This document shows, in pieces, positions 1,715 to 5,425 of a stretch of 5,484 nt of DNA. The DNA comes from Escherichia phage Lilledu. The stretch is taken from sequence record MK791318. One strand, 5' to 3'. The notes under the pieces are model-generated. The model had not been told where the DNA came from. It saw nothing but the letters and a program-made list of their open reading frames with translations, and searched no databases. Numbering within the stretch: position 1 is the first letter of the stretch; the number at the start of each line of letters is the position of its first letter. The translations under genes and the position numbers were made by a program.

Positions 1715-1892
1715 GGCTGATGCCCTTGACGAGGAAAAATGGCTTAACATGCTGGGCGCTCTTCTTAAGGACTGGTTCCGCTACGAAGAACATTTCGTAC
1801 ATGGCAAACAATCTTTAGTTGACATATTAATCGAACGGGGGTTACTATCCCCCACACAAACAACCCGTAACAACAAAGGAAATACCAAATGA
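1632..1892 (+). CDS. C: DNA maturation / packaging protein C, 86 aa
   Basis: ATG 1632-1634 overlaps the A stop (ATGA at 1632-1635). The product [42 protein letters not shown]...[25 protein letters not shown] is near-identical in its core to phiX174 C. The track's longer ORF from 1614 (MDCWWKM...) is an upstream in-frame extension that I do not take as the start. Confidence 0.92.
1819..1848 (+). promoter_or_regulatory. PD-like sigma70 promoter for the D-E-J-F-G-H transcript
   Basis: TTGACA at 1819-1824 and TACTAT at 1843-1848 with an 18-nt spacer, located inside gene C about 40 nt upstream of the D start. This is the same arrangement I recall for the phiX174 PD promoter (TTGACA ... TACTAT). 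Confidence 0.6.
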
Positions 1893-2344
1893 ACTCCAAC
1901 GAATCTGCTGTAGCCTTTCAAACTGCAATCGCTTCTATCAAAATGATTCAAGCTTCATCCGTCCTCGACCTTACCGAAGACGACTTCGAATTCTTAACTG
2001 GCGACCGTGTCTGGATTGCTACTGACCGCTCCCGCGCCCGCCGTGCTGTCGAGGCCTGCGTATATGGAACACTGGACTTTGTCGGGTATCCTCGCTTTCC
2101 TGCTCCTGTTGAGTTTATTTCTGCTGTTATCGCTTACTACGTTCATCCGGTCAACACCCAGACCGCTTGTCTCATCATGGAAGGAGCCGAATTTACTGAA
2201 AACATCGTCAATGGCGTTGAATCCCCAGTTAAGGCTTCCGAACTCTTCGCTTTCGTTCTCCGTGTCCGCGCCGGCTGTAAAGACGTCCTCGAAGGTGCCG
2301 AAGACAACATTCGCGCTAAACTCCGTGCACAAGGAATCATGTAA
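1889..2344 (+). CDS. D: External scaffolding protein D, 151 aa
   Basis: ATG 1889-1891 overlaps the C stop (ATGA). AAGGA at 1876-1880 lies 8 nt upstream. The product is near-identical over most of its length to phiX174 D (e.g. WIATDRSRARR.VEACVYGTLDFVGYPRFPAPVEFI.AVIAYYVHPVN.QTACLIMEGAEFTENI.NGVE.PVKA.ELFAF.LRVRAG). Stop TAA 2342-2344. Confidence 0.96.
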   Translation: MNSNESAVAFQTAIASIKMIQASSVLDLTEDDFEFLTGDRVWIATDRSRARRAVEACVYGTLDFVGYPRFPAPVEFISAVIAYYVHPVNTQTACLIMEGAEFTENIVNGVESPVKASELFAFVLRVRAGCKDVLEGAEDNIRAKLRAQGIM

Positions 2345-2351
2345 TGGCTAA
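2064..2351 (+). CDS. E: Lysis protein E (MraY inhibitor), 95 aa, overprinted within gene D
   Basis: ATG 2064-2066 in an alternate frame inside D, preceded by GAGG (2051-2054). The product begins MEHWTLSGILAFLLLLSLFLLLSLTTFIRSTPRP..., a hydrophobic N-terminal transmembrane segment aligning with phiX174 E (MVRWTLWDTLAFLLLLSLLLPSLLIMFIPSTFKRP...). Stop TAA 2349-2351, inside J. The track ORF starts further upstream (2007), but the internal Met matches the E N-terminus and has an SD. Confidence 0.85.
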   Translation: MEHWTLSGILAFLLLLSLFLLLSLTTFIRSTPRPLVSSWKEPNLLKTSSMALNPQLRLPNSSLSFSVSAPAVKTSSKVPKTTFALNSVHKESCNG

Positions 2352-2430: not shown

Positions 2431-2437
2431 TCTCTCT

Positions 2438-2451
2438 GGGGCTTCGGCCCC
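2438..2451 (+). terminator. J-F intergenic stem-loop (GGGGC-TTCG-GCCCC), terminator / mRNA-stabilising hairpin
   Basis: Perfect 5-bp GC stem (2438-2442 / 2447-2451) around a TTCG loop, 8 nt after the J stop. The same GGGGCTTCGGCCCC element sits at this position in phiX174 as I recall it. It is not followed by a strong U-tract, so termination is probably partial at most. Confidence 0.6.
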
Positions 2452-2467
2452 AATTTAAGGATATAAA

Positions 2468-3754
2468 ATGTCTAATGTTCAAACTTCCGCATCTCGTGAC
2501 GCAATTGACTTATCACATCTGGTCTTCAACACTGGCGCTATTGGTCGCCTTAAAGTCGCGTCATGGACTCCTGTTATCGCTGGTGATTCTTTCCAGCTTG
2601 ACGCTGTTGGTGCTTTACGCTTATCCCCTCTGCGTCGCGGCTTGGCTATTGACTCAACTGTTGATTACTTCACTTTCTACATTCCACACCGTCATATCTA
2701 TGGTGATGCATGGATTCAATTTATGAAAACTGGCGTCGCTGCCGCTTCTCTTAACCCTGTAACTACTGGCGAATACGTTGACAGCGCCTCTTATCTTGGT
2801 GTAATCCCTTCTGCTGATGGCAAGGTTCCCAAGTTCCTGCACCAAGGCTATCTCAATATTTACAATAACTACTTCAAAGCCCCTTGGATGGCTGACCGTA
2901 CTGAGGCAAACCCCTCCAACTTAAACGACGACGACCGTCGTCACGGCTTCCGCTGCTGCCACTTAAAAAATATCTGGTCTGCGCCTCTTCCTCCTCAAAC
3001 GGAAATTACCCGCGCTATGACTACTGGCGCTACCTCCATTGATATCATGGGTCTTCAAGCTGCCTACGCCCAACTTCATACTGACCAAGAACGTGACTAC
3101 TTCATGCAACGTTACCGTGACGTAATCTCTTCGTTCGGTGGCAAAACTCACTATGACGCTGACAACCGTCCTCTTCTGCTTATGCGCTCTAACTTCTGGG
3201 CTTCTGGCTATGACATTGACGGTACTGACCAAACCTCATTAGGTCAATTCTCTGGTCGTGTCCAACAAACATTCCGCCACTCTGTTCCTCGCTTCTTCGT
3301 ACCGGAACACGGCGTTATTATGACTCTTCAACTCGTACGCTTCCCGCCTACCTGCACTGAGGAAACTCACTATCTCGTCGGCAAAGGCGCACTAAACTAT
3401 ACTGACCTTGCGGGTGATCCAACTCTTTACGGTAACTTACCGCCTCGCGAAATCGAAATGAAAACTCTCTTCCGTGGCGCTGCTGGCTCTACTGAAAAAA
3501 TCAAAATTGCCGAAGGGCAATGGTATCGCTATCATCCTTCCTACGTTGATGGACAATATCACAACCTTCAAGGCTTCCCGTTCATCCAAAATGGTCCAAC
3601 TGGCAACATGGAAAACCGTGTACTGATTGACCATAAAAAATACGACGAATGCTTCCAATCACTTCAATTAACTCACTGGAATGCCCAGGCTAAATACAAT
3701 GTCACTGTATATCGACATATCCCGACCACACGTGATAGCATCATGACTTCTTAA
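2468..3754 (+). CDS. F: Major capsid protein F, 428 aa
   Basis: ORF 2468..3754 with AAGGA at 2457-2461. The product is strongly similar throughout to phiX174 F (MSN.QT...DLSHL.F..G.IGRL......TPVIAGDSF..DAVGALRLSPLRRGLAIDSTVD.FTFY.PHRH.YG...I.FMK.GV ... HLKNIW.APLPP.TE..R.MTT..TSIDIMGLQAAYA.LHTDQERDYFMQRY.DVISSFGGKT.YDADNRPLL.MRSN.WASGYD.DGTDQTSLGQFSGRVQQT ... TTRDSIMTS). Confidence 0.97.
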   Translation: MSNVQTSASRDAIDLSHLVFNTGAIGRLKVASWTPVIAGDSFQLDAVGALRLSPLRRGLAIDSTVDYFTFYIPHRHIYGDAWIQFMKTGVAAASLNPVTTGEYVDSASYLGVIPSADGKVPKFLHQGYLNIYNNYFKAPWMADRTEANPSNLNDDDRRHGFRCCHLKNIWSAPLPPQTEITRAMTTGATSIDIMGLQAAYAQLHTDQERDYFMQRYRDVISSFGGKTHYDADNRPLLLMRSNFWASGYDIDGTDQTSLGQFSGRVQQTFRHSVPRFFVPEHGVIMTLQLVRFPPTCTEETHYLVGKGALNYTDLAGDPTLYGNLPPREIEMKTLFRGAAGSTEKIKIAEGQWYRYHPSYVDGQYHNLQGFPFIQNGPTGNMENRVLIDHKKYDECFQSLQLTHWNAQAKYNVTVYRHIPTTRDSIMTS

Positions 3755-3853: not shown

Positions 3854-4378
3854 ATGTTCCAGAACTTTGTCACTAAACACAATTCTCCTCAATTTACTAC
3901 TACTATCACAAAGGCTGTCACTCCCGCTGCGTTGGCTCCTATTATTAATACGCCAACCGTTGCGCGTGACAATCTATTTGTGAATCTAACTACTACCGCC
4001 CTGACTTCTCCGGGCGGTATCTCTGCTGTTGTCGCTATCGACAACTCCTCTCATACCGACAATCAGGTCGTTTCTGTTGCTGCCTCACTTTCTACTATCG
4101 GCAGCCTCGTACCTGTTCTTTGTCGGTTTGAATCTGCTACTGTCCCAACGGCTATCCCCGCCTCTGCGGTTACTTACTATCCGTTGGAATTTAAATCATC
4201 TGATACTACTCTGTCCGTTAAGGACTGCGTTACTGTCTCTACTCTTTCTCGCTCTGGCAATCCTGTTTATGTAGGTATTGCCCTTATTGCGAAATCATTT
4301 GTCGCCGGTACTGTGTACGGCTCCATCTCAATTAATCAGGTTGACCAAGAAATCACAACTCTGCAACCTCTCAAATAA
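3854..4378 (+). CDS. G: Major spike protein G, 174 aa
   Basis: ATG 3854-3856 preceded by AAGGA (3841-3845). The product begins MFQNFVTKHNSPQF... and ends ...SINQVDQEITTLQPLK, matching the conserved N- and C-termini of microvirus G proteins (phiX MFQTFISRHNS ... LQPLK). The middle is divergent and reads closer to G4-type G than to phiX G. The track ORF begins at 3806, but that start lies in the intergenic hairpin region and lacks an SD. Confidence 0.9.
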   Translation: MFQNFVTKHNSPQFTTTITKAVTPAALAPIINTPTVARDNLFVNLTTTALTSPGGISAVVAIDNSSHTDNQVVSVAASLSTIGSLVPVLCRFESATVPTAIPASAVTYYPLEFKSSDTTLSVKDCVTVSTLSRSGNPVYVGIALIAKSFVAGTVYGSISINQVDQEITTLQPLK

Positions 4379-4387
4379 GGAATCTCT

Positions 4388-5425
4388 ATGTTTGGTGCAA
4401 TCGCTGGCGGCATCGCCTCTACTCTTGCTGGCGGTCTAATGTCCAAACTGATGGGCGGCAATAAACAAGCCGCCCCTTCAACTCCCGGACAAGGCCTCTT
4501 CGCTACTCCTGAAACTACTATCTCTGCTGACAATGCAGGTATTCAATCTGTTATGCAGGGACCTAACCCGCCTAGCCCTGATCAGGCGGCTCCTACATTT
4601 ACCGAATCTGCCGTCTCCTCACTTAAGGATGCTGGCAAAGGACTCCTCGATGGTACTCTACAAGCTGGCGGCTCTGCTGTTCAACAAGCTCTTCTTAACA
4701 AAATTGGCCTCGGTGGCAAATCTGCTGCTGATAAAGGCAAGGATACTAAAGATTACCTTGCTTCTGCGTTCCCCGAGCTCAACCCGTGGGAACGCGCTGG
4801 CGCTGGTGCTTCCTCTGCTGGTATGGTTGACGCTGGTTTTGAAAACCAAAAGCAACTAACCAAAATGCAACTTGACAACCAAGTCAAAATCGCTAAGATG
4901 CAAAACGACACCCAAAAGGATATCGCTGGTATCCAGTCTGTCACATCACGCATGAATACTAAGGACTCTGTATATGCTCAAAACGAAATGCTCCAATACA
5001 ACCAAAAGGAATCTATGTCACGTGTTGGCGCTATTCTCGAAAACACAAGCCTCACCAAACAACAACAAACTTCTGAAATTATGCGCCAAATGCTTACTCA
5101 GGCTCAAACCTCAGGACAACACTTTACTAACGCTCAAATCCAAGAGCTTACTCGAAAAGTCGGTGCTGATATTGATGCTGTTCGTGCTAACACTGAACGC
5201 ACCCATGTAGAAACTGACCGCTCTAAACAGGAAGTCCAAAACTCACGTTACGCATCATCACAGGTCGGTAAAACCGCCAAGGACGTATCAAATGTCATTA
5301 GTGACGCATCTTCTGGTATTGTTGATTATTTTCGTGGCGTTGATAAAGCTGTATCGGACACTTGGAACAATTATTGGAAAGATGGTAAAGCCGACGGAGT
5401 AGGCTCCAACATGTCTCGCAAATAG
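4388..5425 (+). CDS. H: Minor spike / DNA pilot protein H, 345 aa
   Basis: ATG 4388-4390 with AAGGA at 4377-4381, overlapping the G stop. Gly/Ala-rich N-terminus [21 protein letters not shown], central block [51 protein letters not shown], and C-terminal ...[23 protein letters not shown] all align with phiX174 H. Stop TAG 5423-5425. Confidence 0.95.

Follow-up and report, generated by a model that had tools for sequence, protein, structure and literature searches.

The window, meaning the whole 5,484-nucleotide stretch of DNA that was analysed, is a complete Bullavirinae (phiX174-like) genome in which the list of open reading frames (ORFs) identifies genes A, C, D, F, G, and H as well as the nested or overlapping genes B, K, E, and J. 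From a whole-genome comparison, it is 96–98% identical to the Escherichia phages lillemer, Lilleto, Lilleput, Lilleen, and MG1, 93.7% identical to SECphi17, and 90% identical overall to the metagenome contig OBLN01002562.1. Salmonella phage PJNS002 shares about 80–83% identity, and G4, ID2, and ID18 only ~74–80%. The window, Lilleto, lillemer, MG1, SECphi17, Lilleput, Lilleen, OBLN01002562.1, and PJNS002 all encode leucine at position 21 of lysis protein E and are considered together as the Leu21-type set (n = 9). Lillemer, Lilleto, Lilleput, and Lilleen were obtained from Danish wastewater with E. coli K-12 MG1655 as the host, MG1 is from China, and SECphi17 is a sewage isolate. The source paper on the Danish phages, which does not mention E, placed them near Gequatrovirus and reported their isolation as plaque formers on MG1655, that is, as phages that lyse their hosts (PMC7552041). 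The SECphi17 (5538 nt) and OBLN01002562.1 (5539 nt) sequences are ~55 nt longer than the window and carry a 55-nt insertion in the whole-genome alignment, which looks like terminal redundancy from a circular genome assembled as a linear one.

Gene D, at positions 1889–2344 of the + strand, encodes the external scaffolding protein (151 aa). It was located from the ORF list; the Lilleto, Lilleput, and MG1 records give it as gpD, and its product is nearly invariant across the lineage. A strong sigma-70-like site (TTGACA-18-TACTAT, 10/12 matches) is found at 1819–1848 (+), 40 nt upstream of gene D; by position it matches the phiX174 D promoter and would drive a D/E mRNA. The gene E orthologue lies at 2064–2351 (+) and consists of 95 codons and a stop in the +1 frame within D, extending 7 nt beyond D into J. 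The translated protein is MEHWTLSGILAFLLLLSLFLLLSLTTFIRST, and the 95-residue frame begins MEHWTLSGILAFLLLLSLFLLLSLTTFIRSTPRP... (MEHWTLSGILAFLLLLSLFLLLSLTTFIRSTPRPLVSSWKEPNLL...). Upon retranslation, the readings given in a preliminary description of this DNA proved correct: codon 3 is CAC (His), codon 21 (2124–2126) is CTG (Leu), and residues 17–22 are S-L-F-L-L-L as opposed to S-L-L-L-P-S in phiX174, with codon 19 being TTT (Phe).

The E translation start (2051–2066, +) is made up of a GAGG sequence (2051–2054), a 9-nt spacer, and the ATG (2064–2066), which is formed by a D tyrosine codon, TAT, and the G of the codon that follows. The start context GAGGCNTGYGTWTATG is common to every Bullavirinae E examined. 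Both the GAGG and the TAT at the E start are kept in 9/9 Leu21-type genomes, while two nearby D tyrosine codons have changed from TAT to TAC in the lineage. Like E, the genes J (2344–2430; MAKGKSYRRGSAGNKKGSRLWYVGGSQF), K (1550–1714), and B (1188–1550) are intact ORFs in the window. None of the four is annotated in the GenBank records of the relatives that were inspected, each of which lists 5–7 genes, and an annotation gap in the lineage is thereby exposed. The E protein of Lilleen ends with ...SCKYYG (97 aa) and not ...SCNG, and the base after the D stop differs as well, so that the 5342-nt record seems to contain an indel where D and J meet. A hairpin, GGGGC-TTCG-GCCCC, was noticed by eye at 2436–2449 (+) in the J-F intergenic region directly after J. 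It may be a J-F terminator or attenuator; a simple terminator scan of the + strand made no call.

The ORF at 2064–2351 is a true orthologue of the microvirus lysis gene E since it has the expected position and frame inside D and the GAGG-N9-ATG start, matches the PDB chains 8G02_B ('Lysis protein E', E = 1.4e-9) and 8G01_B ('GPE', E = 1.9e-9) in a phmmer search, is 53–60% identical to the gpE proteins of G4, ID8, and ID11 (ID8 gpE: E = 1.7e-17 at 60% identity), and is nucleotide-identical to the G4 reference in codons 1–20. A collection of 5.8 billion proteins searched with window E contained nothing above 60% identity. Pfam PF04517 (Microvir_lysis, C-terminal part) scored 19.7 bits (E = 8e-4) against a curated cut-off of 25, a result that says little as the family spans only the poorly conserved C-terminal 40 positions. 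With respect to the G4 group (G4, ID8, ID11, and NC13), window E has in common the position in D, the start context, His3, Phe19, Thr26, and a similar cytoplasmic tail (KTSSM.LN...); it differs at residues 20–25, which are L-P-S-L-L-I in G4 and L-L-L-S-L-T in the window, and at position 29, which is proline in G4 and arginine in the window. The phiX174 and ID21 E proteins seen in the MraY-E-SlyD (YES) complex (8G02 and 8G01) are homologous single-pass membrane proteins whose helix aligns with that of window E without a gap. From these, window E retains W4, T5, L6, L10–L18, L20, L24, F27, I28, W39, K40, and M50; Pro21, which both possess, is absent. In terms of descent, window E is an E protein; by the hallmark residue of the phiX174/ID21/ID52 class, which is leucine in the window and its eight relatives, it is not a standard member.

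Residues 9–28 (ILAFLLLLSLFLLLSLTTFI; 2088–2147, +) are predicted to form a transmembrane helix from Kyte-Doolittle hydropathy and the gapless alignment to the E helix of 8G01 and 8G02. With a 19-residue Kyte-Doolittle value of 2.68, this helix is the most hydrophobic segment among the ORFs scanned in the window, and it is followed by a positive flank of R29, R33, and K40. As in other E proteins, the charge distribution predicts an N-out, C-in orientation. Residues 9–28 are invariant in 8/9 members of the lineage, lillemer having an S17N substitution, and the helix LAFLLLLSLFLLLSLTTFI recurs in the six close relatives from GenBank, OBLN01002562.1, and PJNS002. In the last of these the helix is the same as in window E, but the E tail is quite different.

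A codon-by-codon comparison with PJNS002, G4, and phiX174 delimits a remodelled block at E codons 21–26 (2124–2141, +). The block reads CTG TTA TCG CTT ACT ACG (L-L-S-L-T-T) where other phages have CCG TCA TTG CTT ATT AYG (P-S-L-L-I-M/T). The D frame limits the changes open to E. In the +1 frame, the middle position of every E codon coincides with the wobble position of a D codon, and the four changed bases (2125, 2128, 2131, and 2137) are all wobble bases of this kind. The resulting P21L, S22L, L23S, and I25T substitutions are fixed across the clade and synonymous in D. In the case of P21L, the D alanine codon GCC becomes GCT; the earlier statements that this change is silent in D and that D keeps YGTLDFVGYP were both confirmed. 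The preliminary description did not include the other differences from phiX174, namely Leu22, Ser23, Thr25/Thr26, and Arg29. Compensation at the level of RNA structure is unsupported since the four changes (C>T, C>T, T>C, and T>C) contain no complementary pairs. Shifting the register by one residue so as to bring the helix into line with the Pro21 type was rejected upon inspection as D is ungapped and the match is not improved.

A second proline is also affected. Pro29, which PJNS002 retains, does not vary among the Pro21-type E proteins; in the window, a comparison with other E genes places an arginine codon, CGG, at this position (2148–2150, +). Residues 1–31 of window E contain no proline. 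Every other invariant residue of the helix (L10–L18, L20, L24, F27, and I28) is kept, as are the cytoplasmic invariants W39, K40, and M50. When plotted on an ideal helical wheel, the positions that changed (21, 25, 29, 22, and 26) cluster in an arc of 140 degrees and the conserved residues 13, 16, 17, 20, 24, and 27 occupy the opposite side, a geometry that is descriptive only as the Pro21-type helix is kinked.

The conservation of Pro21 was surveyed with a degenerate DNA pattern anchored on the invariant D peptide EFI[A/S]AVIAYYVHP. IMG/VR contained 18 loci with a proline codon and none without one. The only non-proline contig in a metagenome collection was OBLN01002562.1, which belongs to the same lineage as the window, and a scan of GTDB (one genome per species) returned 0 non-proline variants. 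A profile search of the 5.8-billion-protein collection produced 1021 matches, and the 120 listed were mostly error-laden phiX174-like ORFs. Isolated 'P21L/T' singletons among the matches listed were rejected as natural variants since the sequences that carry them are otherwise phiX-like and contain scattered errors elsewhere. For comparison, 21 distinct Pro21-type D/E regions were assembled from phiX-like, G4-like, and alpha3-like phages, representing three genera. Residues 10–16, 18, 20–25 (L-P-S-L-L-I), and 27–29 of E are invariant among them, and four of these positions (21 P>L, 22 S>L, 23 L>S, and 25 I>T) are switched in all 9 Leu21-type sequences. The supposition that Pro21 is conserved was thus borne out by the 21 regions and the 18 IMG/VR loci. 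As to whether Leu21 occurs elsewhere, for which an alignment of E proteins had been proposed, it was found in the eight relatives of the lineage and in none of the 21 other distinct sequences. A sequencing or assembly artefact confined to one genome is barely conceivable when the CTG TTA TCG CTT ACT ACG block is common to eight other independently determined sequences; because these genomes have the same helix, sequencing error is excluded as the source of Leu21.

The His3 and Phe19 residues have a different history. R3H and L19F are, as the preliminary description stated, the Epos changes of phiX174; these alleles allow plaque formation on slyD hosts, reportedly through faster or raised synthesis of E (PMC4825663, PMC3324380), and the L19F allele is paired with A79S in D (PMC4825663, Table 1). 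Native E proteins of the G4 group read MEHWTLSGILAFLLLLSLFLPSLL and already contain His3 and Phe19. In the window, L19F is likewise paired with an alanine to serine change in D. Hence the residues that were presented as special features of the window phage are the normal state of the G4 group. While window E resembles the phiX174 Epos proteins at both positions, including the paired serine in D, what arose as laboratory suppressors in phiX174 is here an inherited, ancestral G4-type state. Since His3 and Phe19 are native in the G4 group, SlyD independence is not inferable from them, and they offer no specific reason to call window E SlyD-independent.

The E frame is open in 9/9 genomes of the lineage. 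When D was randomly recoded with synonymous codons according to the codon usage of the genome, E remained open for at least 90 codons in 2.2% of trials and for at least 35 codons in 16%; the E ORF is more than a product of chance. Synonymous differences were counted only at codons whose D amino acid is unchanged. For the window compared with PJNS002, such differences were found at 16/35 codons upstream of E, 3/28 under E residues 4–31, and 17/42 under residues 36–93 (Fisher p = 0.002), a selection test that rests on two sub-lineages only. In a sliding window, synonymous divergence forms a trough of 0.10–0.13 at 2039–2160 versus 0.33–0.52 in the flanks. Among all nine sequences, the variable D-synonymous codons number 22/34 upstream, 4/28 under E residues 4–31, and 24/43 downstream (p = 4e-5), or 4/28 under the E helix region versus 46/77 elsewhere when pooled. 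Control pairs of Pro21-type phages present the same pattern, for example 20/36, 3/27, and 22/47 for G4 versus ID2.

At E sites 20–28, the window and PJNS002 have 0 differences, where relaxed constraint would be expected to give roughly the 40% background rate. The proline-less helix appears from these counts to be under purifying selection. The window and G4 differ at 7/28 codons in the helix region as compared to 1–4 of 27–28 in other between-lineage comparisons. Taken with the counts above, this is read as a burst of change along the branch to the lineage, after which the new helix came under constraint again; simple decay would leave a different picture. The synonymous trough could nevertheless arise in part from constraints on the D mRNA or from a small recombination patch rather than from E.

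The preliminary description had raised another lysis route as the alternative to a functional E. To identify a replacement lysis ORF, the nine complete genomes were aligned and every plus-strand ORF of at least 30 codons was mapped. The ORF at 2475–2726 (+) encodes a very hydrophobic product of 83 aa in the +1 frame of F and is listed in lillemer as the 'hypothetical protein' lillemer_1. It was rejected as a lysis gene as it contains a stop in PJNS002. The lillemer_1 annotation is probably spurious because of stops in relatives (PJNS002, ID2, and ID18), little synonymous suppression, and no Pfam match. An ORF at 650–970 within A is open in the lineage and was rejected since its synonymous divergence is ordinary (0.3–0.4), and the ORF at 4029–4274 and other hydrophobic ORFs were rejected on account of stops in relatives or no synonymous suppression. 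None of the remaining plus-strand ORFs of at least 30 codons was both open in all lineage members and lineage-specific. The search lends another route no support: it identified no other conserved hydrophobic ORF under constraint, whereas constraint is seen in the E helix.

The loss of Pro21 may be considered against what is known of other E proteins. According to the summary of Tanaka & Clemons 2012 and Witte 1997 in PMC5039524, phiX174 E inhibits MraY, the activity resides in the helix, and substituting or moving Pro21 abolishes function. The P21A substitution kills the G4-like ID52-E (PMC11126076), and the literature agrees with the earlier assertion that Pro21 is required. In the cryo-EM work of Orta 2023 (PDB: 8G01, 8G02), as cited in PMC11812184, SlyD is bound and a bent E helix lies in a groove next to helix 9 of MraY, and the bend, which that account credits to Pro21, is part of the fit of E to the groove. 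Window E lacks Pro21 as do the engineered phiX174 E and ID52-E mutants, which are lysis-dead as single mutants. The natural variant differs from them in having three more fixed neighbouring changes (L22, S23, and T25) and a signature of purifying selection.

Serine and threonine residues are able to bend membrane helices. It is proposed that in one lineage, consisting of the K-12-infecting lillemer/Lilleto/Lilleput/SECphi17 phages and PJNS002, the membrane helix of E was remodelled by P21L, S22L, L23S, and I25T switching together, and that selection has since held the new helix constant. Window E would then remain the single-gene lysis protein of the phage, inserting with its N-terminus out and its C-terminus in. 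It would most probably still dock in the MraY groove next to helix 9 through the unchanged L10–L18, L20, L24, F27, and I28, followed by W39-K40, with the small polar residues S23, T25, and T26 supplying the helix bend or packing that is given elsewhere by Pro21. From sequence comparisons, we infer the lytic activity, the MraY target, and the compensation by S23/T25/T26. Taken as a whole, the reading in which window E is a functional orthologue whose helix has been remodelled, remains the lysis protein, and most likely acts on MraY by its conserved face with S23/T25/T26 in place of the proline, is given a probability of roughly 0.55. Counted against this reading are the reported indispensability of Pro21, the part of its helix bend in the fit to the MraY groove, the PF04517 score, and a sample of only two sub-lineages.

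A functional E may also work unlike phiX174 E, with the proline-less helix adopting a different pose on MraY or having switched to some other mechanism or membrane target. The joint change of four positions that do not vary in three genera, and their subsequent freezing, fit a shift to a new interface, and the known mode reportedly depends on Pro21. With regard to another target, the short helices of single-gene lysis proteins from other phages act on MurJ (bioRxiv 10.1101/2023.10.16.562596). Residues 10–20, 24, 27, and 28 as well as W39, K40, and M50 are unchanged, however, which argues for the same partner; a change of mode or target is regarded as unlikely. A related formulation, in which a selectively maintained natural E works without Pro21 as L22, S23, and T25 re-solve the interface, whether as a differently shaped helix in the MraY groove or on a different membrane target, would be a somewhat unlikely outcome.

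If published mutagenesis is taken at face value, E should be inactive without Pro21, and the gene would be a dead or dying relic whose open frame and helix DNA are kept by constraints on D mRNA and translation or by recent recombination, lysis being achieved otherwise. The additional loss of Pro29 in the window, the lack of an E annotation in any relative inspected, and the 16% of recodings in which at least 35 codons stay open by chance are all compatible with a relic. Such a relic would not be expected to keep a full-length ORF, a TAT-dependent ATG, and the GAGG in 9/9 genomes, and the synonymous trough falls on the E helix and resembles the one seen in phages whose E works. Moreover, sites 20–28 are without window-PJNS002 differences despite the background rate, and the nine aligned genomes provided no alternative conserved ORF. 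Decay of E is therefore considered quite unlikely, and the preferred reading remains that of a remodelled but functional lysis protein.

Protein E is a textbook 'protein antibiotic'. If E does work without Pro21, the lineage would provide a second, proline-independent design of this phage protein antibiotic. Among the papers searched, none linked the phages of this lineage to E, Pro21, or slyD. The replacement of an 'invariant, indispensable' proline across a phage lineage that keeps E under apparent selection amounts to a natural test of the role of that proline, and the lineage includes SECphi17, an available isolate on E. coli K-12 (MG1655). P21L together with S22L, L23S, and I25T may serve as a ready-made natural suppressor set that is transferable between G4/ID52 E and window E. 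The sequence freedom of an MraY-blocking helix would be relevant to the design of peptide inhibitors and to the production of bacterial ghosts.

Some features of the genome outside of D and E are also of interest. The gene G region (3854–4378) aligns poorly with PJNS002 and G4, with frame-mapped stops and length changes, and the spike protein G of the lineage has been described as having almost no similarity to that of recognised gequatroviruses (PMC7552041). The divergence of this region may be related to the use of K-12, and not E. coli C, as the host. Synonymous divergence falls sharply at 391–570 in gene A and at 4868–5050 and 5258–5425 at the 3' end of gene H. Against OBLN01002562.1, it is 0.00 at A 391–540 with flanks of 0.33–0.5, and against PJNS002 it is near 0 in A 1321–1635 as well as where H ends. 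The low divergence at A 1321–1635 is due to the B/K overlap; the other stretches may stem from mosaic recombination or from cis elements, for example the A promoter or the origin of replication.
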